A stretch of DNA of 64,000 nt from Alphaproteobacteria bacterium (GTDB taxonomy: Bacteria; Pseudomonadota; Alphaproteobacteria; CAAHEQ01; UBA3637): assembly GCA_045660045.1 (NCBI GenBank), contig JAZRDB010000007.1, forward strand, positions 5,180-69,179, given 5' to 3'. The translations under genes were made by a program, and so were the position numbers. Below, piece by piece: positions 1 to 61,275 of the stretch (the first letter of the stretch is position 1; the number at the start of each line of letters is the position of its first letter). Under the pieces are notes generated by a model. That model saw only the letters and a list, made by a program, of their open reading frames with translations. It did not search any database and was not told the DNA's origin.

Positions 1-1410
1 ATATCCCAGGTGATTTAAGAGCATTGGATTTTCTGGACTCAATTCCAACGCTTTTTTTAAATCCGATTCGGCCAAGGCGTCTTGCTGTTGTTGGCTGTAA
101 ATAAAGGAACGCGCAAAATAAATATCCGACGCATAACTCCGATTCGATTCGCCCTCGATTTCTAATATACGCGTATACGCACGTAAAGCCGCCGGCCAAT
201 TTTTAAGTTTTTGATAAACATTTGCCAGAGCAAGCCACAACGGCGTTGATTCCCGATTCGCGCGCTTTAATTGCCGCAACAATGGCAAAGCTTCTTCTTC
301 ATGTCCGCAGGAAATCATATTAGAAGCTCGTTTAAATTCTACTGTCTGAGTCAAAGGCCCTTTCAACTGTTTATAGTAATGCGCCGCTAATTGAGGCTTT
401 CCCGCTTGTTCCAAAATCTCTGCGTTCCAAATTTTGGGCAAATCTTGATCTGGATTTAAATACAATGACAAAGCGCTTAAAATCAATGCACCTTCGTAAC
501 TATTTTGAGACGACCCCATCGCTGTGGATATATTATAAAAAGCTTCCGCAGCCCCACGAATCGGCGTCATTTCCTTCGATTCACGCTGCATAATCAACTC
601 TGCCGTTGCTGGTTGCTCGGCCGCAAACAATTGCCATTGTACATAGAACGGGTTTTCCAAACGCCAATTTCCTTTGCGCACAAAAAAGTCCCGAATTTCT
701 GGATAAAGCGACACGGTCAACAACTTATCTCCGGCCAAATTTTGAAAAGCCTCTTCCGCCATAAAGGAATTGCCCAAAGTCATCGCTATTAAGCCGCGGT
801 GATAATGATAGTACGGCATCAACCCTTTTTGTTTTTTTAAAGGCTCCAACGCGGCCACGGCTTCCGTCAATTTGTTTTCCCCTGCAAAGCTCCAAGCACG
901 AATCAATGGATTAATAATTTCATCCAACGGCAATGGCCGGCGATTCGCAATTTCTTCTTGCACCTTTGTCCAGTCTTTATCATGCAGGGCATAGCCCGCC
1001 CGCACATGATCCGTTAAAAACACAATTCGATGTTCCGGAGACATCTGAGCAACAATCGGACGCAACGCCTCAAAATTACCCAAAATAGCATTAAAAAAAT
1101 AGGCCTCTCGTTGTAATTTTTCATTTGTTGGATCACCCTTTAAAACCTTTAAGTACAAAGCGGCCGCTCGTTCCAAATCATCATTTAAAACGGCATTTAA
1201 AGCGGACAAATACGCTCCCGGCTCAACCGTTTTGGGCGTAGGCTTATCCGACAACCAAACTGGTTTTTCCTTGGCGACATCCTTTGTTTCAGGCAAAACG
1301 GGTAAAAAAGGCTTTTTTTCATACCAACAATATCCCATCCAAGCCCCAATGCCAAGGCCGGACAAAACCAAAATCCATGCAATTCCTTTAAACAGTTTTT
1401 TTAAATACAT
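1..1410 (-). CDS. TPR-like repeat protein with N-terminal membrane anchor; partial, C-terminus lies beyond the left window edge
   Basis: Absent from the ORF track because it is open at the window edge. Hand translation from ATG 1410 (AAGGAAAG upstream) gives MYLKKLFKGIAWILVLSGLGIGAW..., then 470 uninterrupted codons with repeated A/L/Y-rich helix-pair segments. Track ORFs 505-792, 1197-1382 and 1232-1429 are out-of-frame shadows. Confidence 0.6.
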   Translation of the reverse strand, partial: MYLKKLFKGIAWILVLSGLGIGAWMGYCWYEKKPFLPVLPETKDVAKEKPVWLSDKPTPKTVEPGAYLSALNAVLNDDLERAAALYLKVLKGDPTNEKLQREAYFFNAILGNFEALRPIVAQMSPEHRIVFLTDHVRAGYALHDKDWTKVQEEIANRRPLPLDEIINPLIRAWSFAGENKLTEAVAALEPLKKQKGLMPYYHYHRGLIAMTLGNSFMAEEAFQNLAGDKLLTVSLYPEIRDFFVRKGNWRLENPFYVQWQLFAAEQPATAELIMQRESKEMTPIRGAAEAFYNISTAMGSSQNSYEGALILSALSLYLNPDQDLPKIWNAEILEQAGKPQLAAHYYKQLKGPLTQTVEFKRASNMISCGHEEEALPLLRQLKRANRESTPLWLALANVYQKLKNWPAALRAYTRILEIEGESNRSYASDIYFARSFIYSQQQQDALAESDLKKALELSPENPMLLNHLGY

Positions 1411-1469
1411 TTTCTTTCCTTTTTATTGAAAATATGTTAAGCTATTTTTTCATAAAATGAAAGTTAAAA

Positions 1470-2153
1470 ATGGATATTAAACAAAAATTATATTGGCTTA
1501 TGCAAGCGGGCATTTCTTCTTTTTGTGCCGACACGCCTAAACGCAACGAAGTTGTCGCCCCCACAAAAGATGACACACCGGCCACAGATAAAGCTTCAGC
1601 CGTCGCCCATAAAGCCAAGGATTTATCCACCTTAAACTCGGATAAGCAATCTTTTTCATTGTCTTCGTTAAAGAAAACAGCCACACACACCGTTTTGGGA
1701 TTGGGGCCGCAAAAGCCACACCTCATGTGCATTTTAGAAACACCAGATGCACAAGCGGACAAATCTGGTCAATTATTGAACAGTTCTCAAGGAGAGCAAC
1801 TAAAGAAAATGATGGCTGCAATCCATTTGGACATAGAAAAAGACGTTTACGTTACTTTTCTAAGCCCGTGGCGTACGCCGGGCAACCGTCCATTGACCAA
1901 CGCCGAACGCGCTTTGTTTTTACCATTTTTAGCACGCGAAATAGAATTAGTCCAACCCCAAAAAATTTTATTGTTTGGCGCCGGCGTTACCCATGCTTTA
2001 TTAGACATCGAATCGGTTGCCAAAGCACGTGGCGCATGGCACAGTTGGCAACAAATTCCTGTCCGCGTCACATTACCCCTTTCCGCCCTCAAAACCACAC
2101 CCTTGCGACAACAAGCATGGGACGATTTACAAGAGGTAGAGAAATCTTTTTAA
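1470..2153 (+). CDS. Uracil-DNA glycosylase superfamily protein (family-4-like, degenerate motifs)
   Basis: 227-aa ORF. The segments LETPDAQADKSGQLL...GEQLKKMMAAIHL...FLSPWRTPGNRPLT...LLFGAG follow the family-4 UDG layout by eye. The N-terminal LYWLMQAG extension resembles alphaproteobacterial UDG-like proteins. Confidence 0.5.
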   Translation: MDIKQKLYWLMQAGISSFCADTPKRNEVVAPTKDDTPATDKASAVAHKAKDLSTLNSDKQSFSLSSLKKTATHTVLGLGPQKPHLMCILETPDAQADKSGQLLNSSQGEQLKKMMAAIHLDIEKDVYVTFLSPWRTPGNRPLTNAERALFLPFLAREIELVQPQKILLFGAGVTHALLDIESVAKARGAWHSWQQIPVRVTLPLSALKTTPLRQQAWDDLQEVEKSF

Positions 2154-2161
2154 ATCATTAA

Positions 2162-2192
2162 CAAAAAAAGAGGGCCAATGGCCCTCCTTTCT
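2162..2192. terminator. Bidirectional intrinsic terminator between convergent genes
   Basis: GAGGGCC-AAT-GGCCCTC hairpin at 2170-2186, with an A7 run on one side and a T-rich tract on the other. Confidence 0.6.
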
Positions 2193-4798
2193 TACATTGG
2201 TGTACAATTCCCCGTTCCCGAACATTTATAACGATCAATGCTAGACTTGCTTGGTTTATTAATAATCACCAAATAGCCAGAACTCGACGTCCTTTTGGCC
2301 TTAAACAGCTTCGTCGTTGTATTCCCCGGACAATAAAAATCACTCCACGTACACTTGTCCTGTATACAAATTTCACCATTCCACGTTTTCTTCACTGTCC
2401 CCGCAGAATCGGCAACTTTTCCACTAAAACGAGCGCTTGTGTCTGTTGCCGAACTAAATGTTCTGAAACATTTATTTGGGCACAACCAAACATTTGCATA
2501 TGTATCTGTGGTTGCCGTTTTACCAGATCCTTTGCACGCTTTACATGCGGTGCCATCCTTATAACATTCCGCATTGCAAGTAAAGGATGTTGCGTCCTTG
2601 CCAGAACATGTGGCACAAGATGGGCAATTTTGACACGTGCCATTAAGAATCACCTTTCCGCTTGGACAGAAACAAGCGCTTGCTGCCGTTTTGGCTGTTC
2701 CATCTGTTGTTTTCCCATTGGGGCATTTCGTGGCTCCCGTATTTGCTATCACATCTTTATACCACCCCTTTGCAACAGCCGTACATTCAGTTGCACCGCT
2801 TTTAAGTTCATATCCTTTTTGACACAGACAATTGCTTGTTGATGTGCTGCCTGTGGATGTAGTTGTTGTGTTGGCTCGCCAATCGACGCATTTTTTGGTC
2901 CCAGTGTTTCCTACAACATCTTTATACCATCCCACAGCAACAGCCGTACATGCAGTAGCACCACTTTTAAGTTCATAACCTTTTTTACAAACACAAGAAC
3001 TTGTTGATGTACTGCCTGTGGAGATTGTCGTTGTATTGGCGCGCCAATCAACACATCGTTTGGCGCCCGTGTTTCCTATAGTATTTTTGTACCACCCTGT
3101 GAAAACGGCCGTACAGACCCCTTCTACCATTTCATATCCTTTGTCACAAACACAAGACCCTACACCTTGATTGTTGCCACCATCACAAACTTTATTGGTA
3201 TCGCATGCCGTACCCGCAGCAGCGGGCGTATATACCGCATTTGTTCCCGAAGATGTACATTTTGTTGTACAAGTATCCGCCACAAATCCATCACACCCAT
3301 TTTTACAAGTTTCATCCGATCTCATCACATAACCACTATCACACACCCATGTACCCCTTTCATTATCATTATTTGGATCTCCACAATGCTTATGAGTACT
3401 TGGATTGTTGCCCCAATATCTGTCAACAGGCGCATAAGTATAAACCGCTGTGTGATTCTCTACCCTACATGCTGTTTTACACGTTGTGGCTGTAAAATTA
3501 TTACATGTTTCTATTGGTTTACATTCACCATCATCACATTGTTCGGTTCCTGCACAAGTGCTATCCGCATCACAAACGCAGGTTTGTTTGTCTTCATCCC
3601 AAAAGGGCAGTTTTGTATAACTTCCCTCACCACATTCAAAACAGGTAGACGACGCCCCACGATTATAGGCTGCACCATGGTAACCGTCATTACATTCACA
3701 TTGTTGAGTCTCTTTGTTATACGTTGACTTTCCATCGTTACAAGCCAGTTCACACATATGACTGTCCTCATTACAATATTCGTTACTACCACAGTCGCCA
3801 TCTGTTATACATTCAACACATTGTCCATTATATGCATAAGGTCTGTTGGTCGGACAAGTTGGGCAATTTTCATCGGGATCACAAGCACAGCATTGATTTC
3901 CTTCACAACACTTTTGCCCCTCTTCGCAATCATTGTCAATGTCACAGGCTCCATTGACACATGTACAGGAAGCATCATATAATCCCTTTCCAAGTTCGTT
4001 GGTGCACTGTTCGCCAACCTTCAAACAATCGCATGAGGTGTGATCACTATTCACCACCAACGGAGCCTCGCACGTGTCACAACTTGAATTTTCTGTTGTT
4101 GTTTCTTCCGTACGATATGTGTTACCCGTACAAGGTTTACATGTTTCATCACATGTGCCATATCCCGTTTTATAATACCCCGCACGGCACGTTAACACAC
4201 CATCCGAAACGGATCCTCCACTTGGGATTGTGCGTTCTGGACACCCATCTTCATTCGGATCCTCCTGACTCTGTTGGGGCCTCCACCAAGGATATAAACC
4301 ATGCAAATGATATCCTGGACTTTTTTGGAATAAATATTGCAACACATTCTTTGTTTTGTCCTTTTGGCAAGCTGTAATTTTTTTCCCTGTATCATCTGTT
4401 ATGGCTATTAACCCAATTTCGCTTGTTTTTTTCTCACTTGATTGTATTTCTCGCGACTTTTTTAACATGCTTTCACACACTTCTTGGGTCAACGCATCTG
4501 TCTTCACCCAAAAATAATTGCTCATAGGTCCATCAATACCGTTTTCCACTTCCAAGCCAATGCTGTGCGGACCCTCCCTGGAAATTTTATCTTGCGCATT
4601 TGATGGCTTTGCTTGCAAAGCGTGTTGACGAATCACAGCTTCTTCCATCACCGCCGTCGTCAAATCTTTGGCTATCACGTCAGAACGTAACAAGCCCCAA
4701 ACATGGAATCCTCCCAATGTCAACAACATTAACAGGGCTAACACCCCTAACATTTCCAACATACTGCGTCCAGATTCGTTCTTCTTGTTTTTCTTCAT
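2192..4798 (-). CDS. Cysteine-rich modular prepilin-like surface protein (868 aa)
   Basis: AAGGAG SD precedes ATG 4798. The N-terminus MKKNKKNESG/RSMLEMLGVLALLMLLTLGG has a basic tip, a Gly, a Glu at +5 and a ~20-residue hydrophobic helix, matching the class III (type IV prepilin) signal pattern. About 76 of ~78 Cys (hand count) lie after residue ~190, in CxxC, CxC and C-x-G-Y motifs. There are three 55-aa tandem units near the C-terminal third. Confidence 0.8.
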   Translation of the reverse strand: MKKNKKNESGRSMLEMLGVLALLMLLTLGGFHVWGLLRSDVIAKDLTTAVMEEAVIRQHALQAKPSNAQDKISREGPHSIGLEVENGIDGPMSNYFWVKTDALTQEVCESMLKKSREIQSSEKKTSEIGLIAITDDTGKKITACQKDKTKNVLQYLFQKSPGYHLHGLYPWWRPQQSQEDPNEDGCPERTIPSGGSVSDGVLTCRAGYYKTGYGTCDETCKPCTGNTYRTEETTTENSSCDTCEAPLVVNSDHTSCDCLKVGEQCTNELGKGLYDASCTCVNGACDIDNDCEEGQKCCEGNQCCACDPDENCPTCPTNRPYAYNGQCVECITDGDCGSNEYCNEDSHMCELACNDGKSTYNKETQQCECNDGYHGAAYNRGASSTCFECGEGSYTKLPFWDEDKQTCVCDADSTCAGTEQCDDGECKPIETCNNFTATTCKTACRVENHTAVYTYAPVDRYWGNNPSTHKHCGDPNNDNERGTWVCDSGYVMRSDETCKNGCDGFVADTCTTKCTSSGTNAVYTPAAAGTACDTNKVCDGGNNQGVGSCVCDKGYEMVEGVCTAVFTGWYKNTIGNTGAKRCVDWRANTTTISTGSTSTSSCVCKKGYELKSGATACTAVAVGWYKDVVGNTGTKKCVDWRANTTTTSTGSTSTSNCLCQKGYELKSGATECTAVAKGWYKDVIANTGATKCPNGKTTDGTAKTAASACFCPSGKVILNGTCQNCPSCATCSGKDATSFTCNAECYKDGTACKACKGSGKTATTDTYANVWLCPNKCFRTFSSATDTSARFSGKVADSAGTVKKTWNGEICIQDKCTWSDFYCPGNTTTKLFKAKRTSSSGYLVIINKPSKSSIDRYKCSGTGNCTPM
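2714..3115 (-). repeat. In-frame 165-nt tandem repeat, about 2.4 copies, inside the 868-aa gene
   Basis: Copy boundaries fall at the Cys codons at 3115, 2950 and 2785. Each unit encodes CTAV..GWYK....NTG..KCVDWRANTTT.STGSTSTS.C.C.KGYELKSGAT. (55 aa). The third copy diverges after about 24 aa. Confidence 0.85.
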
Positions 4799-4807
4799 TT
4801 TTTCTCC

Positions 4808-7249
4808 TTATGCTCGTTTCAAATATTCTTGAACCAGTTGATCTACGTCTGTAATTTCAGATTGTAATTTTTCCGCCAATAAAATATTTTTACTACCAGA
4901 TGAATAAACTTTCAAATAGGATCCTAAACCGGACAAATCTACATCTAAAATAACAGATTCATGGATGGCCGGTCGGCTGACCAAAATAGCGTATTTTCTG
5001 TCCGCCCACTCTTTGCCTAGAATAAAGTTTAATTCACGCGGTGTCAAGTTCCATGTTGCATAATCGGATGGGTTCGCCTGTGGATTTCGGAAGAAAACGA
5101 CTGTTTGACATTGACCACGAATCACATCACCCAAGCCCGCTTCATCCAAAAATTTCGGTTGCTGGAACGCACAAAGATATGCTTGACGTTTTTTACGTCC
5201 TTCTCGAAGCCCTACGATAAAGCTTTCTTTAAACATTGGGTGTTCCAACATTGGCGCCGTTTCATCGATCATAATCATACTGGGCGCACCGGTTGAACTG
5301 GCCAATTCATCAATACGGTGCATGATATAGCTGATGACCGCAGGCGCCAAAGATTTATTGCTATCATTAAAGATGCTTGTAAAATCAAACGCCACATAAC
5401 GGTTTGTTAAATCCAGATTGTCTTCAGGCGAGTTAAAAATATTACCATATTGATCCGGATCAATCCATCTGTTCAATTCACGACGCATATAACCGTTTGG
5501 CGCAAAACACGCTTTGTATAAATTCTTTAACATACGATCACTTTTCGGCAAATACTCAAAAGCCGTCACAACCGCACGAGCAATTTCAGTTTCAGAAACA
5601 GCATCCTTTCCTTCTGTGATATCGCGCAACCAACCGCGCAAAAAGGCTCTGTTCGGCAAATTATCTTCAATTAAAAATGGATTTAAAGAAACAGATTCCT
5701 CGCCATCAAACTTGATGTATGGCGCCCCATTCACCACAGCAAAAACCTTGGCACCTTTATTACGATCAAAGAAGTATGTATGCAAATCTGGGATACGCAT
5801 TGCCTGAGAGGCAATAAAGCTGAAGAATGTTGTTTTACCTTGACCGGTCGGACCAATCAAGGCGGTATGTGCCACTGCGTACTGTTCCTCTGTAACATGG
5901 AATTGGAAAGCATACGGCGTTCCGGTAATCGTCCTAAAATAAGATAACGGAACCGGACCCCAGTCTGATTTCTTGCGACCTTCGGACGGTTGATCAATCA
6001 TCGTCGCACAGGCAACCACATTGGAAAGGTATAAATATGTTCTTGGGTACACATCATAGGTTGGGAATTGGTTAAAGAAAACAGCCTGTGCGGACCATCC
6101 CTCACGCACCGGTGTCACGTTATGAATACGACAAATACGCTCTACCTCTTCTTGACCAAACTTCAATTCGTCAGGCGAATCTCCATATAAAATCATGGAC
6201 ATTGCATATTCATTTAATGTTTGGCTGTCCGCGTCCGTGGCATCCAACGACGCCAACGCTTCATTATATTGGTCCAACACGTTTTGAGAAAAACTTGTCA
6301 TATAGGCCATTTTACGTTGGTTAAGTAAAAGTGCTGTCGACTTGGACATTGGAACAGCTTTAATATTATGCAAAAAGACCATTTCCATATCAATGCTCAA
6401 CAAATCCGCCACCATTTGTTCGTCCATATAATCACCCGGCTTTCTTATCCCCATCATGATGGCTAATTTTTCTCGATCACCCGCAAAGAAACGCACAATT
6501 CCTTCGTCCTTGGTAAAATGAACGTAATCTGATGTTAAAAGCACATTCAAATAATCGCCTTGTTCTCCATGAATAAGCGGCTTTGGACGAGAAAGCGGAC
6601 TTGCCAACCGAGCAAACACCCATAAAGGACTTCTATCTTCTTGATTTACACCTTCTTTTTCTGTTAACAAAACGGGATTATACATATCCAAAATGGAAGT
6701 CAACGCATTGGATGCCTGTTCTAAATCACGCATAGCTTCCTTACGATCGTTCACGCTGATAATAATGTAGTGACGATTTTTAAAGATACGATGCATATTT
6801 TCCATCCACAATTCATCGATCTTGTGTAATAATTTGTTATCTTGAAAGGCCTCCATTGTGTCTAATTGAACTTTATCGCGCACCGTCATCATGCGCACAA
6901 CAATTTCCAATTCTGCCATAGAATCAATCCAGCGTTTTCTGGCACTTGTCAAGGATACACGATCTTCCGGAGCCATCAAGGTGCTGTCTACACCTTTTAC
7001 CTCAAACACACGCGCCAACGCACCATTTCTCAGATGAATAGTTGCGCCATCTTCATCTAATTTTTCAAACGGCAAAAAGTCGGAAAGACGTGTTTCTTTT
7101 GGCTTTGGCAATACCCACTCACCAATTTTTGTCACGGATGCAAACGCCAACAACACGGCAGATATCAACCCCAAAACCGCCAAAACCATCGGAGTCGAGG
7201 TAGCGCTCGTCAAGATAAAATCAATTATGTTCGCGTCTATATTATTCAT
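4808..7249 (-). CDS. virB4: Type IV secretion system ATPase VirB4/TrbE/CagE family
   Basis: 813 aa with an N-terminal TM segment. It has Walker A LIGPTGQGKTT, Walker B-like MIMIDETAP and GRKKRQAYLCAFQQP. AAGGA SD. The start lies 12 nt after the virB3 stop. Confidence 0.85.
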   Translation of the reverse strand: MNNIDANIIDFILTSATSTPMVLAVLGLISAVLLAFASVTKIGEWVLPKPKETRLSDFLPFEKLDEDGATIHLRNGALARVFEVKGVDSTLMAPEDRVSLTSARKRWIDSMAELEIVVRMMTVRDKVQLDTMEAFQDNKLLHKIDELWMENMHRIFKNRHYIIISVNDRKEAMRDLEQASNALTSILDMYNPVLLTEKEGVNQEDRSPLWVFARLASPLSRPKPLIHGEQGDYLNVLLTSDYVHFTKDEGIVRFFAGDREKLAIMMGIRKPGDYMDEQMVADLLSIDMEMVFLHNIKAVPMSKSTALLLNQRKMAYMTSFSQNVLDQYNEALASLDATDADSQTLNEYAMSMILYGDSPDELKFGQEEVERICRIHNVTPVREGWSAQAVFFNQFPTYDVYPRTYLYLSNVVACATMIDQPSEGRKKSDWGPVPLSYFRTITGTPYAFQFHVTEEQYAVAHTALIGPTGQGKTTFFSFIASQAMRIPDLHTYFFDRNKGAKVFAVVNGAPYIKFDGEESVSLNPFLIEDNLPNRAFLRGWLRDITEGKDAVSETEIARAVVTAFEYLPKSDRMLKNLYKACFAPNGYMRRELNRWIDPDQYGNIFNSPEDNLDLTNRYVAFDFTSIFNDSNKSLAPAVISYIMHRIDELASSTGAPSMIMIDETAPMLEHPMFKESFIVGLREGRKKRQAYLCAFQQPKFLDEAGLGDVIRGQCQTVVFFRNPQANPSDYATWNLTPRELNFILGKEWADRKYAILVSRPAIHESVILDVDLSGLGSYLKVYSSGSKNILLAEKLQSEITDVDQLVQEYLKRA

Positions 7250-7261
7250 TCAATTCCTTTG

Positions 7262-7555
7262 TTATGGCGCCAGCTTTACACCCCGCTGCTTGTAAATGTT
7301 ATGGCTTGTCGCTGGACCGTTTGTTCCCCACGCTTGCAACATATGGGATAGGTGGGGTTCTCGTGTGCCTGCAATAACCAAAAAAATATGTCCAAGTAAA
7401 ATTGTAATCAATGAAACCAATGGGTTTACATTAAACATACCAATCAAGATAAACATCCACGCCGCCTGAATTACAAAGTTAGCCATGGCGGGAATAAATG
7501 GTGCCAAGAAAATACGGGGCGGCATAGCAACTGCTCTTAAAATTGGTTCGCGCAT
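7262..7555 (-). CDS. virB3: VirB3-like small inner-membrane T4SS protein
   Basis: 97 aa with two hydrophobic segments. The pattern EPILRAVAMPPRIF...ANFVIQ...GHIFLVIAGTREPHL matches the VirB3 layout, and the gene sits directly upstream of virB4. GGAGA SD. Confidence 0.65.
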   Translation of the reverse strand: MREPILRAVAMPPRIFLAPFIPAMANFVIQAAWMFILIGMFNVNPLVSLITILLGHIFLVIAGTREPHLSHMLQAWGTNGPATSHNIYKQRGVKLAP

Positions 7556-7620
7556 TTTAATCTCCTGATTCTATTCATACAATAAATTCTTGCAAATGAA
7601 AAGAAAAAAATGCTTTTTTC

Positions 7621-7649
7621 TTGACTTTTTTTATCTTTTTTGGCATAAT
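7621..7649 (+). promoter_or_regulatory. sigma70-type promoter of gatCAB
   Basis: TTGACT (7621-7626), 17-nt spacer, CATAAT (7644-7649). The track ORF starting at 7621 begins on the TTG of the -35 box. Confidence 0.55.
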
Positions 7650-7674
7650 TTTACCATTCATAAAGGAGAAAAAA

Positions 7675-7962
7675 ATGGCCTTAAATCAAGAAACAATTAA
7701 AAATCTTTCTACTTTGGCCCGTTTGCGCTTGCCCGCTGAACGCGAAGAAAAGATCTTATCCGACTTACAAAGCATTTTGGACTGGGTAGAACAATTAAAA
7801 GAAGTTGATATTGAAGGGGTAGAACCTTTAGTTTCTGTGACTCAAGGAAATGCGCCAATGCGTCAAGATATTGTCACAGACGGTGGTTTACAAAAAGAAT
7901 TGATGTTGAATGCGCCCGAGGAAATTCAGGGCTTTTATGTGGTACCAAAGGTGGTGAAATAA
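7675..7962 (+). CDS. gatC: Glutamyl/aspartyl-tRNA amidotransferase subunit C
   Basis: Start refined to ATG 7675, with AAGGAG 8 nt upstream. The 95-aa product begins [25 protein letters not shown]. The stop overlaps the gatA start (ATGA). Confidence 0.9.
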
Positions 7963-9428
7963 TGACTGATTTAGTGAACTTGACCATCGCCGAAGCGTTG
8001 GAATTATTGAATAAAAAAGAAATTACTTCTGTGGATTTAACAAAGGCACATATTGCCGAAATGGAAAAAGGGCACATCTTAAATGCCTTTATTACCGAAA
8101 CGCCAGACTTGGCTTTAGAACAAGCAAAAGCGAGTGATGAAAAACGGGCAAATGGGTCGCCTTTGGGGACGTTGGAAGGTATTCCTATTGCCAACAAAGA
8201 TTTATATTGCACAAAGGGCGTCAAAACAACTGCGGCCAGCAAGATTTTATCCAACTTTGTGCCACCGTATGAATCCACGGTATCACAAAAATTAAAAGAT
8301 GCCGGCACAGTGATGCTCGGTAAATTAAATACAGACCAATTTGCAATGGGCGGTTCCACATTGACCAGTTATTTTGGCGTAACTAAAAACCCTTGGAATT
8401 TGGACTTGGTGCCAGGGGGGTCCTCTGGTGGTTCCGCCGCCGCTGTGTCTGCCGGATTATGCATGGGGGCCACAGGTTCCGATACAGGTGGTTCCATTCG
8501 TCAGCCAGCCAGTTTTTGCGGTGTAACAGGCATTAAACCAACCTATGGTCGTTGCTCGCGCTATGGTATCGTGGCTTTTGCCAGTTCATTGGACCAAGCG
8601 GGTCCGATGGCGCGCACTGTAAAAGATTGTGCTTTGATGTTAGGCGCTATGGCTGGCGCGGATGATAAAGATTCCACCGTTGCCACTATTCCTGTGCCAG
8701 ACTACACCAAGGCGTTGACGGGTAATATTAAAGGCAAAAAAATCGGTATCCCAAAAGAGTATCGTTTGGATGGTTTAAACGAAGATGTGCAAGCCATCTG
8801 GGATAAGGGAATTCAGCTTTTAAAAGATGCTGGCGCAGAAATTGTGGATATTTCTTTGCCACACACAAAATACGCTTTACCAGTTTATTACATTGTGGCT
8901 TGTGCAGAAGCCAGTTCCAACCTTTCTCGCTATGATGGTGTGCGCTATACCACACGTGTCGAAGGCAATTCCTTGGATGAAATGTATGAAAACACCCGCA
9001 CAGATGGTTTTGGTGACGAAGTCGTGCGCCGTATTTTATTGGGCACATTTGTGTTGTCAGCGGGCTTTTATGACGCCTATTACACACGCGCTCAACGGGT
9101 ACGCCGTTTAATTTACAATGACTTTGTGGAAGCGTTTAAGCAAGTGGATGCTATTTTAGTGCCAGCTGCACCAACGCCTGCACTTTCTGCTGAAGACATG
9201 AAGAACATGAAACCTGTGGATGTGTATGCGGGTGACGTATTTACAACACCGGCCAGTTTGGCGGGCGTTCCTGGCTTGTCTTTACCAATTGGACTATCTT
9301 CAAACGGATTGCCTGTTGGCTTACAGGTGATTGGTAAGCACTTTGATGAAAACACGGTTTTCCAAGTGGCGGATGTACTGGAAAAAATGGCGAACTTTGA
9401 CAAGACTCCCCACAGAGTGAAAGGATAA
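7962..9428 (+). CDS. gatA: Glutamyl/aspartyl-tRNA amidotransferase subunit A
   Basis: 488 aa with the amidase signature [11 protein letters not shown] and [11 protein letters not shown]. Confidence 0.95.
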
Positions 9429-9431
9429 AAG

Positions 9432-10880
9432 ATGTACACGATTGAAGGAAAAACAGGCAAGTGGGAATTAGTTATTGGATTGGAAGTCCACTGTGAGATT
9501 TTATCCAAATCCAAAGTCTTTTCGGGCGCCAGCGCGGCTTTTGGCGGAGAACAAAATACACAGGTGTCTTTTATTGACGCCGCTTTCCCTGGTATGTTGC
9601 CAAAAGTCAATGAATATTGTATCGAACAATGTGTAAAAACGGGTATGGGCTTAAATGCTCAAATCAACAAATACTCTCGTTTTGATCGCAAAAACTATTT
9701 CTATGCGGACTTGCCACAGGGGTATCAGATTTCTCAATTATATCATCCGATTGTTGGTGAAGGCTTTATTGAAGTCACCACCGCCGATGGCACACGCAAG
9801 ATTGGGGTGGAACGGTTGCATTTGGAGCAGGATGCGGGCAAATCCATCCACGATATGCACCCTAGCAAGACTTTGATTGACCTGAACCGTTCGGGTGTAG
9901 GCTTAATGGAAATTGTGTCTAAACCCGATATGCACAGCCCCGAGGAAGCAGGCGAATATTTGCGCCAACTTCGCGCGATCGTGCGTGCTTTGGGCACCTG
10001 TGATGGCAACATGGATGAAGGTTCTATGCGTTGCGACGTGAATATTTCTGTGCGTCCTGTGGGTGAAACAGGACTTCGTGCCAGAGCGGAAGTTAAAAAC
10101 GTGAACTCTGTGCGTTTTGTGATGCATGCCATTGAGGTGGAAGCCGAACGCCAAATTGAAGTTTATGAAAATGGTGGCACAATTCGTCAGGAAACACGCC
10201 TTTATGATTCCGAAAATGGCGAAACACGCCCTATGCGAACAAAAGAAAATGCCAATGATTACAGATACTTCCCAGATCCAGACTTATTGCCTGTGGTCTT
10301 GACGGACGAGTATATTGAAAACATTCGCAAGAATCTGCCTGAATTACCGGAAGTCAAGAAAAAACGTTATATCGAACAGTTGGGACTGCCCGAATATGAC
10401 GCCGGCATTTTAACCGCAGACAACGAAACTTCCGCTTATTTTGAGGCGGCGGCCAAAGAGCATGATGCCAAGAAAGTGGCCAACTGGGTCATGGGTGATT
10501 TATTTGCTTATTTGAACAAGGAATGCCTGCCGATTACCAAAAGTCCTATCTCTGCTGAAAATTTGGGTGCATTAGTTGGTTTAATTGAAGACAACACGAT
10601 TTCTGGCAAAATTGCCAAAGATGTGTTTGTGTTTATGATCGAGTCTGGTAAAGATCCTGCCGCCATCGTGGAAGAAAAAGGCCTGAAACAAACGACCGAT
10701 ACAGGCGCCATTGAAGCCATCATAGATGAAGTGTTGGCCGCAAATCCCGATAAAGTTGCCGAAATCAAAGCTGGTAAAGACAAATTAAAAGGGTGGTTTG
10801 TCGGTCAAATTATGAAGGCCAGTCAAGGCAAGGTCAATCCTGCTATGGCGAATGAACTGTTGGAAAAGAAATTACAATAA
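9432..10880 (+). CDS. gatB: Glutamyl/aspartyl-tRNA amidotransferase subunit B
   Basis: 482 aa containing [17 protein letters not shown] and the C-terminal GatB/YqeY region. It starts 3 nt after gatA. Confidence 0.95.
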
Positions 10881-16194: not shown

Positions 16195-17571
16195 ATGAAA
16201 AAAAAGAAAGCATTAAATGTCCATATGCGCGTTTTAAAAACGATCGCCCGCGTTTTAATTATAAACATCCCTGCGGTCATTATTTTGTTGTGTTTATTGG
16301 TAGCAAATCAATTGTCCTGGATTTCCGCTGGTATCGCTTTGTTGGCCTTTTGGGGGATCAGTGGCATTATCGTCTTTTATGTCTTTAAAGATTTAGACGA
16401 TTTTATGAATTATTTAAGAAAACTGGCTCAAGGTTTCGAACCCGAATTGCCAAAGCTTCATTGGGGTATTTTTTCATCCGCACGCCTTACAAAAACATTT
16501 TTAAGCGTTAAAAATTTATGGTCAAACCAATTTGCTTCCGCCGAAAGTGTATTGGAAAACCTGCCCAATCCAATGTTGATGATTGATGAAAATCAAAAAA
16601 TTGTTTTTACCAATTTTAGTGCTAAAAATCTTTTAGGAAACAAGCTTTTGGGCAGAAAATTATCCTCACTTTTTAATGATGCTCTTTTATTGGATACTGT
16701 TAAAAGTGTCATTACAAAAGCACAAACATCCAAAACCATCGCTGAGTTTGATATTAAAAATAAAACGGAACAAATTCAAACTTTTCAGGTAAAAGTCGAT
16801 CATTTGCCTGTTCCCACAAAAGATGGGGCCATTGTTGTGCTTTCATTTTTTGATATCACTCCATTTAAGTTATTTAAAGTACAGCAGGCCGACTTTTTTG
16901 CCAACGCCAGTCACGAACTGAAAACACCTTTGGCCATTATTAATGGGAGTGTTGAAACATTACAAGGTCCCGCTAAAAATGACGCTGCTGCTCATGATAA
17001 ATTCTTACCCTTAATCGCCGAACAAACCGTTCGAATGACTGATTTAGTCCAAAAGATGTTACAATTATCTAGACTTCAAATGGACGTACCATTAAACCGT
17101 AAAAATTCATTTTCTTTAAATGATTTAGTCCAAAAGGTCGTCAATGATTTTGACGTGCGTGCAAAGGCAATGCATAAGAAAATTATTTTAAATAAACAAG
17201 CCCATTTACCTTTGTTCCGTGCGGATCGTAATGATTTATACCATGTGTTTCAAAACCTTGTCGACAACGCTTTAAAATATAGCGCGCCAAAATCTGATAT
17301 ACATATCAATACATACTTGGATACAACAGGAAAATCTGCATTAGTCGTCGCTATACATAACTCTGGTAATCCTATTTCGCCCGAACACTTGGATCGGATT
17401 TGGGACAAATTTTATCGTATTCATTCGTCTGGTACGCAGTCTGTTGAAGGCAGTGGTTTGGGGTTAGGCATTGTGCAAAATATCGTCCGAAAATATCAAG
17501 GACATGTTGATGTTGTTAGCACCGAAGAGGCGGGAACAACGTTTACAGTTTACTTGCCCGTCGCTCCATAA
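16195..17571 (+). CDS. Sensor histidine kinase, PhoR-like
   Basis: 458 aa with two N-terminal TM helices, a PAS-like middle region, the H-box DFFANASHELKTPL and the G-box GSGLGLGIV. Confidence 0.8.
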   Translation: MKKKKALNVHMRVLKTIARVLIINIPAVIILLCLLVANQLSWISAGIALLAFWGISGIIVFYVFKDLDDFMNYLRKLAQGFEPELPKLHWGIFSSARLTKTFLSVKNLWSNQFASAESVLENLPNPMLMIDENQKIVFTNFSAKNLLGNKLLGRKLSSLFNDALLLDTVKSVITKAQTSKTIAEFDIKNKTEQIQTFQVKVDHLPVPTKDGAIVVLSFFDITPFKLFKVQQADFFANASHELKTPLAIINGSVETLQGPAKNDAAAHDKFLPLIAEQTVRMTDLVQKMLQLSRLQMDVPLNRKNSFSLNDLVQKVVNDFDVRAKAMHKKIILNKQAHLPLFRADRNDLYHVFQNLVDNALKYSAPKSDIHINTYLDTTGKSALVVAIHNSGNPISPEHLDRIWDKFYRIHSSGTQSVEGSGLGLGIVQNIVRKYQGHVDVVSTEEAGTTFTVYLPVAP

Positions 17572-17870
17572 CAAAACATTTCTTTTAAGATACGATTAAG
17601 TTCATTTTGTAGGCTTTCGGGCAACGCACCTATACGATTTATCAAATCAGACTTTGGAACTGCATGTAACATATCGGGCGCAATCTGGCCTTGTTTTCCC
17701 CGCATTTTAACCCCTAACCGAAAAGGTAAATTTCTTTCCGCTGTGGTAATTGGAGCAATCAAAACATATGGCATCGTTTCAGCCATCTCATCTGGCGACA
17801 AAACAACACAGGGTTTTTCAATACCGTGTGATTCGCATAAATATACATCTCCGCGCTTTACCATTCCCAT
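17550..17870 (-). CDS. mazF: MazF/PemK-family toxin (mRNA interferase)
   Basis: 106 aa containing KRGDVYL...KPCVVLSPDE...VLIAPITT...LPF, the PemK pattern. The 3' end overlaps the kinase gene's 3' end by 22 nt (convergent). Confidence 0.8.
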   Translation of the reverse strand: MGMVKRGDVYLCESHGIEKPCVVLSPDEMAETMPYVLIAPITTAERNLPFRLGVKMRGKQGQIAPDMLHAVPKSDLINRIGALPESLQNELNRILKEMFCYGATGK

Positions 17871-18076
17871 TCTCCTAAATATCTTAAAGGTTTCGAATTA
17901 ATTTCATCTTTAATGGCCTCTTGCCATCCTTGACGAGGTTGTTTTTCGGCAGATAAAACAACGCTTTTTCCTTTTACTGTCAGGTCTAAATCCGATGAAA
18001 ATTCACACGCATCGATTACGGCTTTTGGTAAGCGCACACCATACGAATTGCCTATTTTAACTAACTTTACTTGCAT
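17858..18076 (-). CDS. mazE: MazE/AbrB-type antitoxin
   Basis: 72 aa. MQVKLVKIGNSYGVRLPKAVID is a SpoVT/AbrB swapped-hairpin motif. The gene overlaps mazF by 13 nt. Confidence 0.8.
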   Translation of the reverse strand: MQVKLVKIGNSYGVRLPKAVIDACEFSSDLDLTVKGKSVVLSAEKQPRQGWQEAIKDEINSKPLRYLGEWEW

Positions 18077-23538: not shown

Positions 23539-24142
23539 GTTCTACCCCCTTAATTTTAAGAATACAACCTTCTGAATTGACAATATTTTTTATTTTTTCA
23601 ACTTCATATTTCCATTGTGTCTGATTTAATTCTTCGTCAACGGATTTTCCCTTTGGTAATAATAAAATTGTTTCACGTGAAACATTGTGTCGAACCAAAG
23701 TAAGAAGTTCGTCAAGAGGGGCAAAAGCACGAGCCGTAATAACATCCGGTGTCTGCTTCACATTTTCAACACGTTCACGTAAAACTGTAAAATTCAAGTG
23801 TAATGTTCGGGCACATTCTTGTAAAAACAAACTTTTCTTTAAGTCTGATTCTACTAATGTAATAGAAGTTAAGGGGCCTTGAAGTGTCTGATTTAAGATA
23901 GCTATAACAACGGCCGGCAAACCACCGCCACTCCCTACATCCATCAAACTATGTGCTTGATTTTCCAATAAAAAATAAAGTTGAGCCGAATCTAAAATAT
24001 GTCGATTCCAACTATCCTCAATTGTCTTTGAGGAAATTAAATTGACCGTCTTTTGCCACTTTAACAAAAGATCCCAGTATTGTTTTAACATGGGGATTGC
24101 CGGCTCAATTTTTTGTTCAAGTTCTTTTTTTGTTGTAATCAT
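23531..24142 (-). CDS. rsmG: 16S rRNA (guanine527-N7)-methyltransferase RsmG/GidB
   Basis: 203 aa containing WNRHILDSAQL and the SAM motif DVGSGGGLPAVV. One parS site lies within the gene and encodes NVSRET. Confidence 0.9.
   Translation of the reverse strand: MITTKKELEQKIEPAIPMLKQYWDLLLKWQKTVNLISSKTIEDSWNRHILDSAQLYFLLENQAHSLMDVGSGGGLPAVVIAILNQTLQGPLTSITLVESDLKKSLFLQECARTLHLNFTVLRERVENVKQTPDVITARAFAPLDELLTLVRHNVSRETILLLPKGKSVDEELNQTQWKYEVEKIKNIVNSEGCILKIKGVEHV
23669..23684. other. parS: parS centromere-like site (perfect consensus TGTTTCACGTGAAACA), inside rsmG
   Basis: Exact 16-bp palindrome. It is flanked by the further inverted repeat CTTTGGT...ACCAAAG. Confidence 0.85.
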
Positions 24143-24221
24143 ATTATTCTTTTTTTTATATTTTTATCAGAATAATTGTCATTATATATAGAAAAAAATT
24201 AAATTCAAGAACTTTTTTATA

Positions 24222-24247
24222 AAAAATGTTTCACGTGAAACATTTTT
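24222..24247. other. parS: parS site in the dnaQ-rsmG intergenic region (26-bp perfect palindrome)
   Basis: AAAAATGTTTCACGTGAAACATTTTT, which contains the 16-bp parS consensus. Confidence 0.85.
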
Positions 24248-24267
24248 GCATATTTTTTATTACTTTT

Positions 24268-24969
24268 TTATGCTTTTTCATCCATTTGAGATGGATTTAT
24301 TCCCCACAAATTATTTTTTATTTTTTGAACAAATGCTGTATGGGCGGCTTCTTCTTCCGGTAATATTTCAAAGACTCTTGGCGCCAATGTTTCACGTGAA
24401 ACATTTTGGCTTACAGTTTTTTTCTCTTTTTTTTCAGATACTTGAGAAAATTTTAATTCTTTATCAAGTATCATAGCAAGATAAACATCCGCCAATAATT
24501 CACTATCTAATAAGGCTCCATGAACGGTTCGCCGTGAAGCATCAACACTAAACCTTTTACATAATTCATTTAAATTCACACGTGATCCGGGATATTTTTG
24601 ACGCGCCATCACTAACGTATCTAACACATGATCATAACTTAATAAAGGTCTATTTGCCTTTTTCAGTTCAAAATTTAAAAATTTCATATCAAAGGGCGCA
24701 TTATGAATCACAAGCGTGTCTTCACCAACAAACGCCAAAAAGTCATCTGCAATTTCGGCAAATTTGGGTTTGTCAGACAAAAATTCTTCCGTCAAACCAT
24801 GCACTGCTATAACTTCCTCGCTCATAGATCTCTCTGGATTCAGGTATTGATGATAGGTTTTCCCCGTTGGAATATGGTTTACCAACTCAACGCAACCAAT
24901 CTCAACGATCCGATCACCTGTATCGGGATCTAAGCCTGTTGTTTCGGTATCTAATACAATTTCTCTCAT
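24268..24969 (-). CDS. dnaQ: DNA polymerase III epsilon subunit (3'-5' exonuclease)
   Basis: REIVLDTETTGLDP (ExoI), plus the ExoII and ExoIII motifs (HGALLDSELLADVY). The start is either ATG 24969 or 25020. The C-terminal tail contains a parS site encoding NVSRET. Confidence 0.85.
   Translation of the reverse strand: MREIVLDTETTGLDPDTGDRIVEIGCVELVNHIPTGKTYHQYLNPERSMSEEVIAVHGLTEEFLSDKPKFAEIADDFLAFVGEDTLVIHNAPFDMKFLNFELKKANRPLLSYDHVLDTLVMARQKYPGSRVNLNELCKRFSVDASRRTVHGALLDSELLADVYLAMILDKELKFSQVSEKKEKKTVSQNVSRETLAPRVFEILPEEEAAHTAFVQKIKNNLWGINPSQMDEKA
24386..24405. other. parS: parS site inside the 3' part of dnaQ (20-bp perfect palindrome)
   Basis: AATGTTTCACGTGAAACATT. Confidence 0.85.
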
Positions 24970-25022
24970 ACATATAAGTATATCAGATTTTGCAAAATGA
25001 ATCAAGAATAAGTTTTGCATAA

Positions 25023-25031
25023 TGTGGATAA
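25023..25031. promoter_or_regulatory. Perfect DnaA box (TGTGGATAA = TTATCCACA)
   Basis: Exact 9-mer at the left edge of a 330-bp AT-rich non-coding gap. A one-mismatch box, TTATCCCCA, lies at 25213-25221. Confidence 0.5.
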
Positions 25032-25299
25032 CTGAACACTTTGTCCAAAGTTTTGCCGTCAGTCTAGAAAGTATACAAAACTATGCTTTGACAATGCAAT
25101 GGACAAAAAAAGTTAACCGATTCGTTTTTAAGGTCTATAAAAATGTGCTTCTGTTGAATTTGCAACGATTCGTCATTTTTTGCATTTTCGCGTCAAGAAA
25201 AATTTTAAAAATTTATCCCCATCATCCCCAAGATAACAACAACAATATTTATATATTAAATAATAGAAAGTTTTTATTAGGATAAGTTTTTTTAATAAT

Positions 25300-25333
25300 A
25301 AATCGGCCCTCCAGTATATACTGAAAAGCCGAT
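25300..25333 (-). terminator. Probable greA terminator
   Basis: AATCGGC...GCCGATT stem enclosing the palindrome CAGTATATACTG, directly downstream of the greA stop. A T/A-rich tract follows on the minus strand. Confidence 0.45.
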
Positions 25334-25350
25334 TCTTAATTACTAATATA

Positions 25351-25827
25351 TTAGATATAACGAACCGCTAAAACTTCGTAGGCTTTATCGCCCTTTGGTG
25401 TTTTAACTTCCACAATATCACCCAATTGTTTACCAATCAAAGCCTTTGCCAAAGGGGAAATAAAGGAGATTAATCCTTTTTCCAAATTAGCTTCATATTG
25501 GCCAACGATTTGATAGGTAGCTTTTGCTTCTGTATCACAATCAGAAACATCCACGGTTGCACCAAAAAGGATTTTGTCACCAGACAATTCTGTTGTATCA
25601 ACAACCTGAGCATGAGAAAGAGCGCCTTCTAAATCTTGAATACGTCCCTCAATAAAGCTTTGTTGTTCACGCGCTGAGTGATATTCAGCATTTTCGGATA
25701 AATCACCACGGCTGCGCGCTTCTTCAATAGCTGCAATAATATGAGGACGATCCTCATACTTTAATTTTTTTAATTCTTCTGTTAAAGTGGCAAAGCCAAC
25801 TTTTGTCATTGGAACTTTATCTTCCAT
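25351..25827 (-). CDS. greA: Transcription elongation factor GreA
   Basis: 158 aa containing [18 protein letters not shown]...[15 protein letters not shown]. Confidence 0.95.
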
Positions 25828-25849
25828 GTATAACTCCTTTCATTCAAAG

Positions 25850-25891
25850 AAAAAAAAGATACCGCGGTCAAAATCACCGCAGCTTTTTTTT
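25850..25891 (-). terminator. Intrinsic terminator/attenuator inside the greA 5' leader
   Basis: Minus strand reads A8-GCTGCGGT-GATTTTG-ACCGCGGTATC-T8. The U-run ends 23 nt upstream of the greA ATG and downstream of the predicted greA promoter. Confidence 0.55.
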
Positions 25892-25907
25892 ATCAAAGAA
25901 CAGGATA

Positions 25908-25936
25908 AGTATAATACATTTTTCTTTAAAAGTCAA
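25908..25936 (-). promoter_or_regulatory. sigma70-type promoter of greA
   Basis: Minus strand: TTGACT (25936-25931), 17-nt spacer, TATACT (25913-25908). Confidence 0.55.
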
Positions 25937-25966
25937 GCAATTTTTAAAAAGCAATAATTTAACAGT

Positions 25967-26010
25967 AATTACTTTGTGTATACATAACAAAAATAGTGTA
26001 ATTACTTTGT
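25967..26010 (+). repeat. Two further copies of AATTACTTTGT (25967-25977 and 26000-26010)
   Basis: Both are identical to the copies at 19396 and 19476 and share their orientation. They lie upstream of the greA promoter. The distal copy overlaps the xseA stop codon. Confidence 0.7.
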
Positions 26011-27267
26011 ATATATGTATGACAAGAGGTCTGGTTCATCTTGTTTAGAATAGTTTTCTTTCTTTTTGTTATTTTTCAATGGGATAGTGTCAATACTTCC
26101 ATCTGAAAAACGTACCTGTAATTTCGGTTGATTTTGGGCCTCAAGAGCACTTGTAATGACTTTTGATCCATTTGAAATGAGGGCAAAACCACGTTCCAAA
26201 ATTCCTTGATACGAAAAAGATTGTAGCAAGCGCGCCATAGATTTTGTTTTTTCTTGATATTGTTTCAGGTAAGATTTGATGGCAAGCGCCAATCTTTCAG
26301 TTTTATCATCAGTTTTTTGAATAAATCCTTGAATTATTTCATTTAAATTCGGAAAACGTCCTGTTAATGTTTGAATTTTAAGACGTGATTCAATGAGTGT
26401 TTGATTCAGGGCAGATTTTAAATTATTTTCTTTTGTATTCAATGTGTTATAAAGTTCAAGTCGAACAGGAACGGCTTTCTCTGCCGCACCTGTTGGGGTG
26501 GGCGCCCGCAAATCGGACACGAAATCGATTAGAGTTGTATCTGTTTCATGACCAACGGCAGAGATGACAGGAATCTGTGAATCATAAACAGCGCGCACAA
26601 CGCATTCTTCGTTGAATCCCCAAAGGTCCTCTAACGATCCCCCTCCCCGTGCCACAATCAAAACATCTGGCTTTGGAATTTTGCTATTTTCAGGCAGCGC
26701 ATTAAAGCCACGCACAGCGGCAGCCACTTGTGCGGCGCATTCTTCTCCCTGCACTGCTACAGGCCAAACAATAATATGACGCGGAAAGCGGTCAGTCACA
26801 CGGTGAATAATATCACGAATGACAGCACCAGTTGGGCTTGTTACCACACCTATTACCTCTGGTAAAAATGGAATTGGTTGTTTGTGAGAGGGGTCAAACA
26901 ATCCCTCTTTTTCCAATTTTTCTTTGCGTTCGTTTAAAAGTTTAAGTAAAGCTCCTACGCCAGCCGGTTCAGCTGCCTCTACAATCATTTGATAGTTGGA
27001 ACGCCCCGGATAAGTGGAAAGTTTCCCTGTGCAGATGATTTCAAGGCCTTCTTGAATATGTGCTGCACATTGACGGGAAGAACCTTTCCAACAAATAGCC
27101 GATAGCACCGAATCTTTGTCTTTTAATGAAAAATAAATATGGCCAGAAGTGGCACGTTTGACGTCTGATACTTCACCGCGTACTTTGATGTGGTTAAACA
27201 CTTGTTCCACACAGCTTTTTAAGGAAAGCGATAATTCAGTAACAGATAAAACGGGTTGTTCGGTCAT
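26002..27267 (-). CDS. xseA: Exodeoxyribonuclease VII large subunit
   Basis: 421 aa with an N-terminal OB fold ([18 protein letters not shown]) and [12 protein letters not shown]. Confidence 0.9.
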
Positions 27268-27725: not shown

Positions 27726-27746
27726 AACTCGTATAGTATCATAAAT

Positions 27747-61172: not shown

Positions 61173-61203
61173 AGCGCCCCCGGTTTTACGGGGCGTTTTT
61201 TTG
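61173..61203 (+). terminator. Intrinsic terminator after pnp
   Basis: GCGCCCC(CG)-GTTTTA-CGGGGCG hairpin followed by T8. Confidence 0.8.
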
Positions 61204-61275
61204 TGTGCTGTCCATAAAAACTTCTTGCAAAATATTCAGAAAAAGGTAATGATAAAGAAAAAGAGGAGGTTTCTT

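Follow-up and report, generated by a model that had tools for sequence, protein, structure and literature searches.

A hypervariable modular type IVb-like pilin gene behind a conserved virB3-virB4 pair in uncultured gut Alphaproteobacteria

Why should a long, cysteine-rich, pilin-like gene stand directly behind two genes of a type IV secretion system (T4SS)? The question is raised by three minus-strand open reading frames (ORFs) in a 64,000-nucleotide (nt) stretch of an alphaproteobacterial genome (assembly GCA_045660045.1, contig JAZRDB010000007.1, positions 5,180 to 69,179; hereafter the window), which encode proteins of 97 (7555–7262), 813 (7249–4808) and 868 amino acids (aa; 4798–2192). 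A first-pass annotation had read them as a dedicated module in which VirB3 and VirB4 energise the display of a pilin-like adhesin. Our analysis leads us, with some reserve, to a different reading: a hypervariable modular type IVb pilin has been inserted behind a conserved virB3-virB4 pair, is assembled by a type IVb pilus and is probably co-transcribed with the pair. That T4SS parts are mixed here with a type IV pilin is right as a description; a hybrid module is not supported.

7262–7555, minus strand: virB3, 97 aa, two hydrophobic segments (orthologues match PF05101)
4808–7249, minus strand: virB4, T4SS ATPase, 813 aa (matches to TIGR00929, PF03135 and TrwK)
2192–4798 including the stop codon, minus strand: modular type IVb-like pilin, 868 aa (profile, alignment and model evidence)

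Judged by its sequence, the 813-aa protein is certainly a genuine VirB4, as first annotated. Residues 171–811 match TIGR00929 (E 1.1e-105; 354 bits, under the curated cut-off of 643), the match to PF03135 (CagE_TrbE_VirB; E 1.7e-9) lies over the gathering score, and the nearest solved relative is TrwK/VirB4 of R388 (E 1.8e-34). Across 13 diverse orthologues (alignment A1), neither the Walker A motif GPTGQGKTT (G466–T474) nor the D662-E663 motif varies. The VirB3 assignment stood less directly. The 97-aa protein of the window has no Pfam match at E 0.1, and a PDB profile search with it gave no sequence match, but 19 of 36 orthologues match PF05101 (best E 3.7e-5), its size and hydrophobic pattern fit VirB3, and of the ~80 loci whose contig includes that region, nearly all have the gene immediately 5′ of virB4. 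We therefore accept it as VirB3 on family evidence. The model searches proposed for the trio thus succeeded for CagE_TrbE_VirB and failed on the window copies for the VirB3 and N_methyl models.

How constant is the arrangement? Scanned with a profile, the GTDB species representatives yielded 80 virB4 loci, nearly all from metagenome-assembled genomes (MAGs) labelled Alphaproteobacteria and sampled from the rumen or gut of goat, yak, sheep, buffalo, roe deer, rabbit, horse and human. Essentially all loci with a complete region (~80 species) have the virB3-virB4 pair, and VirB4 is 54–96% identical across these species. Since any two genomes compared differ in VirB4 by only about 10 percentage points more than in GatA/GatB (70% versus 80% identity, for instance), these comparisons mark virB4 as a slowly evolving, vertically inherited core gene of the lineage. 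What follows virB4, in contrast, is variable, and it is here that the idea of a co-conserved three-gene module finds no support. A GRS-type Cys-rich gene occupies the slot only in the window's own small clade (the window, L001, L003, L005, L068 and L171) and in L053, whose VirB4 is 64% identical to the window's and whose 662-aa pilin is independent of that clade. In ~70 other species virB4 is followed by an unrelated gene (ppa, lgt, a lipoprotein gene and others), and in the most distant group by a VirB5/TrbJ-like gene. In L082 a gene that overlaps the end of virB4 (5260–6117) encodes a 285-aa protein with 7% Cys and a Sec-type signal, without a pilin motif or a Pfam match.

Two genomes define the boundaries of the putative insertion. 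L006 and L010 are nested within the window clade on the virB4 tree and share the window's synteny (gatCAB / virB3-virB4 / udg / TPR; udg encodes uracil-DNA glycosylase), but their slot is empty, the virB4 stop codon lying right against the 3′ end of udg. The pilin gene would thus have entered precisely at the junction of virB4 and the convergent udg, behind the virB4 stop codon. Within this nearest clade the slot holds zero, one or two pilin genes of 729 to >2367 aa: two tandem genes of 931 and 1006 aa in L001, 729 aa in L003, 929 aa in L171, a 1570-aa giant family member in L005 (12461–17173), and in L068 a giant of >2367 aa with 12% Cys that leaves the contig (12401 to >19502). Between the window and L001, VirB4 and VirB3 are each 97.9% identical and GatB 97.5%, as against 62% overall for the slot protein and 71% over its N-terminal 175 residues. 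The slot pilin evolves fast, and this divergence, together with the variation in copy number and size, points to diversifying selection on a surface-exposed protein.

What kind of protein is it? The 868-aa protein begins MKKNKKNESG/RSMLEMLGVLALLMLLTLGG (the slash marks the predicted cleavage site): a short basic leader, a Gly, a Glu at +5 and a hydrophobic stretch.

4769–4798, minus strand: leader peptide, aa 1–10 (MKKNKKNESG), with prepilin-peptidase cleavage predicted after Gly10
4304–4768, minus strand: pilin module, aa 11–165, alpha-1 helix and beta-sheet head with a C108–C144 pair (AlphaFold2 model, alignment, hhalign)

In an alignment of 65 family members, G10 and E15 are invariant and R11 nearly so; of 176 distinct members, 172 carry Arg directly after the Gly and 175 have Ser or Thr at the position beyond it, and the leaders are mostly 5–14 residues long. 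When a profile of the N-terminal module was searched against the PDB, type IV pilins took the first three ranks and accounted for six of the seven matches in the list, with the family's GRSilE in register with the GFTLIE of solved pilins. Four family members reach PF07963 (N_methyl). The module extends to about residue 165, with G87, C108, C144 and F157 invariant in the family alignment, and its AlphaFold2 model (predicted local distance difference test score, pLDDT, 83.7) has a 51-residue helix (13–63) followed by five strands. By hhalign, the module profile (alignment A4, which includes the window protein) matches a profile of short pilins (A5, 127–230 aa) at 99.7% probability (E 3e-25, 188 columns), and A5-type short pilins in turn match PilS (PF08805, E 6e-22) and Bundlin (PF05307, E 9e-11); the homology of the window protein to PilS and Bundlin is transitive through these short pilins, the protein itself having no direct Pfam match of this kind. 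Taken together, these comparisons support the class III (prepilin) signal that had been proposed for the N-terminus, an ordinary Sec anchor not being borne out, and indicate that the head is homologous to the PilS/Bundlin type IVb pilins.

Behind the head, the protein is of another character. Cysteines make up 9.0% of its residues and, apart from C108 and C144, start at residue 186.

2570–4243, minus strand: Cys-rich repeat region, aa 186–743, EGF/ephrin-receptor-like/TNFR-like (PF07699 matches)
2714–3097, minus strand: 165-nt (55-aa) tandem repeat, 2.2 copies, 79% identical, encoding ephrin-receptor-like units
2195–2569, minus strand: C-terminal all-beta domain, aa 744–868, conserved (AlphaFold2 pLDDT 79)

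Three stretches match Ephrin_rec_like (PF07699), in agreement with the eukaryote-like repeats first described, and the repeats of relatives also match EGF_TEN, TNFR_ELAPOR1, NCD3G and Giardia VSP. The C-terminal domain recurs in the relatives P0005/L003 and P0006 (phmmer) and in P0003 (alignment A6); it weakly resembles carbohydrate-binding or CUB-like sandwiches, and a Foldseek search of its model against the PDB gave no significant match (E ≤ 0.001, TM ≤ 0.3). Positions 1400–8000 contain no shufflon or inverted-repeat system, only the 165-nt tandem repeat, and no recombinase gene adjoins the 868-aa gene. The architecture of pilin module, Ephrin_rec_like repeats and C-terminal beta domain is that of a modular pilin in the established sense of the term (PMC8179133).

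The protein belongs to a large family. An exact-sequence look-up found the 868-aa protein not on record, and a word-indexed homologue search with its N-terminal 190 aa gave four weak matches; an exhaustive HMMER search with residues 1–190, used instead, returned 62 cluster representatives of 77 to 2356 aa. Members share the signature G/R[ST]xxE and range from 77 to >2300 aa. One of them lies in the window itself, far from any vir gene, where it bears out the expectation of additional NESGRSxLEM proteins with its own NESGRSLLEM (52300–50708).

50708–52300, minus strand: second family member, ~530 aa, beginning MQKSLNESGRSLLEM, ~10% Cys, between uppS and rimP/nusA (A4 profile E 3.7e-18)

Elsewhere, too, family genes are scattered singly among housekeeping genes, beside gatB, tkt, ftsH, nusG and tig-clpP; P0006, which has the same C-terminal domain as the window pilin, adjoins tig-clpP. 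From ~1.4 Mb around virB4 and this one window we estimate that the virB4 loci carry ~18 family genes per Mb and the window 31 per Mb, or ~2% of genes. We also considered an enrichment of family genes near virB4 and rejected it as unproven: about 22 of the 80 virB4 loci have a member within 10 kb, which fits the background of ~18–30 per Mb. A metagenome scan with the short pilins gave at least 600 matches, from which 79 loci (532 kb) were retrieved; these contain 97 family ORFs, mostly of 121–260 aa and often in tandem arrays, and no VirB3 or VirB4 was found in the 532 kb. Short pilins form tandem arrays of two to four paralogues in L090, L100, L121, L160 and L085 (metagenome and Logan loci), and the arrays of L085 and L160 adjoin a ComM-like Mg-chelatase gene and a gene for a secreted protein of ~688 aa. 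A literature search found no papers on a GRSMVEM-type motif or on RF32, the order to which the organism may belong, together with type IV secretion; a search on RF32/CAG-239 yielded only community-survey and MAG-announcement papers.

If such pilins are assembled, what assembles them? In L121, four tandem family pilins come directly after genes for PilO (PF06864), a 306-aa protein, a T2SSE ATPase (E 3e-69) and a T2SSF platform protein. R64-type pil operons run pilO-pilP-pilQ-pilR-pilS, and the gene order of L121 is the same. The T2SSE ATPases of the loci were detected by phmmer and Pfam, a regex scan having missed them. An A24 prepilin peptidase is present in L079. With family pilins beside their own ATPase and platform, the cognate machine in relatives is a type IVb pilus, so VirB3 and VirB4 are not needed to explain assembly or display. 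In the window itself a single gene of type-IV-filament machinery was recognised; it stands alone after pnp and could encode a retraction or assembly ATPase of the pilus system, its connection to the pilins being presumptive. The first annotation had missed both this gene and the second family member.

61201–62682, plus strand: T2SSE-superfamily (PilT/PilU-like) ATPase, 493 aa with an N-terminal extension of ~240 aa (PF00437 E 3.2e-30; TIGR01420 pilT_fam E 1.4e-33, below cut-off)

The layout of the locus bears on how the pilin gene would be expressed. Divergent gatC-gatA-gatB lies upstream of the trio and the convergent udg downstream. The coordinates first reported are confirmed, as are the gaps of 12 nt (virB3/virB4, 7250–7261) and 9 nt (virB4/868-aa gene, 4799–4807), the Shine-Dalgarno-like motifs 5′ of the start codons (AGGAG for the 97-aa ORF, AAGGA for virB4, AAGGAG for the 868-aa ORF) and the terminator hairpin.

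7568–7596, minus strand: promoter-like site TTTGCA-17-TAGAAT upstream of virB3, in the divergent gatC/virB3 intergenic region (consensus scan only, 9/12 matches)
2170–2186, no strand: G+C-rich hairpin between the convergent pilin gene and udg, followed on the minus strand by seven T

Read on the minus strand 3′ of the 868-aa stop codon, the hairpin is GAGGGCC-ATT-GGCCCTC, then seven T; it is common to the 868-aa gene and udg. A sequence scan found no terminator-like site at either internal junction. The proposal of a single operon is upheld to this extent, and co-transcription of the 868-aa gene with virB3-virB4 is plausible. A second promoter-like site (TTGACA-17-TATTCT, 5047–5019) lies within the 3′ end of virB4. 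Both promoter-like sites are consensus matches only, which is no evidence of function. In keeping with the first annotation, which placed no virB1, virB2, virB5–virB11 or virD4 beside the trio, none of these and no further vir gene was recognised in the window (ORF N-termini were read and only some of the ORFs scanned).

We can now set out how the pilin might be made. Transcription of its gene probably starts at the virB3 promoter and reads through, and the 868-aa protein would be produced as a prepilin with the 10-residue leader MKKNKKNESG. The hydrophobic alpha-1 helix would anchor it in the inner membrane, where an A24 prepilin peptidase would cleave after Gly10, leaving an unusual Arg at +1, possibly methylated, and Glu at +5. 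A type IVb pilus machine (PilO, a PilP-like protein, T2SSE ATPase, T2SSF platform, secretin and TcpQ) would then load it into a PilS-like filament, most likely at the tip or at low copy, like PilV, CofB/TcpB or the PilB of S. sanguinis. There, ~700 residues of disulfide-rich EGF/ephrin-receptor-like repeats and the C-terminal beta domain would be exposed on the surface as a ligand-binding adhesin. VirB3 and VirB4 would not be the pilin's assembly motor.

Several observations weigh against this scheme, and one group of them concerns how closely pilus, secretion and pilin genes are joined. A pilus cluster including a secretin (PF00263) and a TcpQ-like lipoprotein (PF10671) is found in 18 of the virB4 loci, each from a different species, and in all 18 it is divergent from, and directly adjoins, virB2-virB3-virB4; their VirB4 is 54–67% identical to the window's.

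~1–9500 in each of L047, L048, L050, L051, L053, L056, L057, L059, L060, L062, L063, L065, L066, L067, L070, L071, L077 and L083: super-locus; on one strand, T2SSE ATPase, PilP-like protein, PilO, secretin, TcpQ and a further protein of 400–800 aa; on the other, one to five virB2 copies, then virB3 and virB4

L063 continues downstream with virB8, virB8 and virB9, the sole locus in which virB8/virB9 are adjacent. virB2 accompanies virB3-virB4 in ~25 loci, only in more distant relatives; in most species the pair is alone, with no other vir genes within 10 kb. Because the cluster abuts virB2-4 in 18 loci and L063 adds virB8/virB9, the ancestral state seems to have been a T4SS next to a type IVb pilus. 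On a single 14.7-kb contig, L053 has the cluster, virB2-3-4 and, behind virB4, a modular pilin, and a spacing of 9–18 nt between pilin gene and virB4 is kept in six genomes; the tight coupling retained, the independent insertion in L053 and the clusters abutting virB2-4 in 18 species hint at more than accident. The leading rival explanation takes up exactly these points: as in IncI plasmids and PAPI-1, the pilus-assembled pilin would be a variable PilV-like contact adhesin that serves the VirB T4SS and is deliberately co-expressed with it, whether its target is bacterial or eukaryotic. There is precedent, as the PilV adhesin of a type IVb pilus sets the target specificity of the T4SS in TP114/R64 and PAPI-1 (PMC9045228, PMC5297154). 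Set against this functional partnership, the adjacency of pilin and virB4 is statistically unremarkable, because a family making up ~2% of genes is expected as the next gene in ~2% of independent lineages and we see two independent events among dozens. Moreover, L006 and L010 have no gene in the slot, most family genes lie far from any vir gene, and no shufflon or recombinase was found at the locus. We regard the partnership as a real but rather unlikely alternative.

Other difficulties concern the protein and its machine. The 64 kb of the source genome revealed neither a type IVb machine nor a prepilin peptidase nor a short major pilin, and the pilus machine is documented in relatives whose VirB4 is 54–67% identical. 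A secretin would have to pass an exceptionally bulky subunit, 868 aa here and >2300 aa in relatives, with dozens of disulfides. The window copy matches neither PF07963 nor an NCBIfam pilin model, other than NF007800 at E 0.01, and a Foldseek search of the pilin-module model against the PDB gave no match (E ≤ 0.001, TM ≤ 0.3). To our knowledge, no prepilin peptidase substrate with Arg at +1 has been described before. These last points, with the awkwardness of so large a protein for filament incorporation, could also mean that it is no pilin at all, and instead keeps an uncleaved signal-anchor as a bitopic inner-membrane/periplasmic Cys-rich protein or is released by another route. We find this improbable, given that G−1 and E+5 are invariant across 176 members, that the sequence aligns in register with solved pilins, and that the profile homology (99.7%) is to PilS/Bundlin-type pilins standing in tandem behind a pilus ATPase and platform. 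No better placed is the original hypothesis, a hybrid T4SS/type IV pilin machine in which it falls to VirB3/VirB4 themselves to pull the pilin-like protein out of the membrane and to energise its surface display or incorporation into a fibre. VirB4 dislocates the VirB2 pilin from the membrane; this, the tight operon-like linkage, and the strong purifying selection on virB3-virB4 (~70% versus ~80% identity for GatA/GatB) although the pair stands alone in most species, all speak for it. However, a dedicated pilus ATPase and platform adjoin family pilins in relatives, the family is dispersed, virB3-virB4 is equally conserved where no pilin follows, virB2 in ~25 loci and virB8/virB9 in L063 indicate an ordinary T4SS role, and no pilin-side family locus carries VirB3 or VirB4; VirB4-driven display of the 868-aa protein is thus unlikely. 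An equally slim chance attaches to a composite envelope machine, no longer a classical T4SS, into which VirB2/VirB3/VirB4 have been recruited with the type IVb pilus (secretin, TcpQ, PilO, ATPase) and for which the giant G/R-type modular pilins are substrates or fibre components. If true, it would explain why core virB3-virB4 are only slightly less conserved than GatA/GatB, why neighbouring channel genes are usually absent, and why the pilus cluster adjoins the pair in 18 species and a modular pilin follows it in two independent lineages.

The rest of the window is ordinary chromosome (mutS, parAB, tkt, thrS, recA, alaS, tsf, frr, uppS, nusA, infB, pnp), as judged from ORF N-termini and the Pfam labels of syntenic loci. 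At ~24000–28000, beside parAB and rsmG, the cumulative GC skew reaches its minimum, GC content falls to 0.33 and the predominant coding strand switches from minus to plus. The region resembles a replication origin, in which case virB3-virB4 would lie ~20 kb from the origin. Two overlapping minus-strand ORFs at 17550–18076 (72 and 106 aa; MQVKLVKIGNSYGVRLPK... and ...KRGDVYLC...) look, by eye only, like a MazE/AbrB-type antitoxin and PemK/MazF-type toxin pair. Two further Cys-rich proteins are encoded on the plus strand, one of 257 aa at 31023–31796 (8.6% Cys, Sec-type signal, no pilin N-terminus or significant family match) and one of 97 aa at 40322–40615 (5.2% Cys, no pilin N-terminus).

Beyond the insertion of a pilus-assembled pilin behind a T4SS gene pair, the reading that we favour, these results have wider implications. 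They define a large pilin family of type IVb ancestry in uncultured gut and rumen Alphaproteobacteria, whose members are ~80 to >2300 aa long, amount to roughly 2% of genes in the examined loci and largely escape standard pilin signatures. Because InterPro/Pfam pilin signatures mostly fail on it, a signature-based census such as that of PMC8179133 would probably miss most of its members. Many members have eukaryote-like Cys-rich ectodomains and are therefore candidate host- or cell-binding adhesins under diversifying selection. The results also establish virB3-virB4 as vertically inherited core genes in this lineage, and if Arg at +1 is truly processed and methylated, the substrate range of prepilin peptidases widens.

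How does the locus compare with known systems? In the modular pilins PilB/PilC of S. sanguinis and CofB/TcpB (PMC8179133), as here, an N-terminal pilin module carries grafted, presumably tip-exposed ligand-binding modules; the differences are that the modules here are EGF/ephrin-receptor/TNFR-like, that the proteins reach >2300 aa, and that the family has expanded to ~2% of genes. Those modules share a CxxC-rich repeat composition and Pfam matches with Giardia VSP and with eukaryotic EGF/ephrin-receptor/TNFR ectodomains, but the present repeats are encoded by bacteria and attached to a pilin module, and homology and convergence are both possible. A different likeness concerns the gene order around virB4. 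The rvh system of Rickettsiales has virB3, virB4 and virB6 paralogues in one locus and its other vir genes elsewhere. Both there and here, chromosomal, vertically inherited virB3-virB4 lies apart from other vir genes and large, lineage-specific duplicated genes follow virB4; in rvh these encode polytopic VirB6, whereas here a single-pass pilin-like protein occupies the slot, and only in one small clade.

The closest parallel is a plasmid one. The T4SS of IncI plasmids is type IVB (Dot/Icm-like), whereas the T4SS genes here are VirB (type IVA)-like. The first annotation's remark that it knew of no described T4SS locus of such composition overlooked PAPI-1 and the IncI plasmids R64/TP114, in which pilus genes lie beside a T4SS and the two systems work together through a type IVb pilus with a PilV adhesin (PMC9045228, PMC5297154). 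Like the family described here, the PilV/PilS pilins of the IncI1/IncI2 thin pilus (R64, TP114) and of PAPI-1 have a type IVb pilin module, to which a variable adhesin part is joined at the C-terminus, and the R64 machine has the same gene set (PilO, ATPase, platform, secretin and a lipoprotein/TcpQ-like partner), with the family pilins matching the PilS model. In R64, PilV varies through a shufflon (sfx repeats and Rci); here variation lies in dispersed paralogues and a variable slot, the C-terminal part is ~700 residues of Cys-rich repeats, and the signature is G/R[ST]xxE. Those systems reside on a plasmid or an integrative and conjugative element, whereas the genes described here are chromosomal, vertically inherited core genes. 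In part of this lineage, virB2-4 and the type IVb pilus cluster are kept together as a conserved super-locus, which is the chromosomal counterpart of the pairing of a T4SS with an adhesive thin pilus in IncI/PAPI-1.

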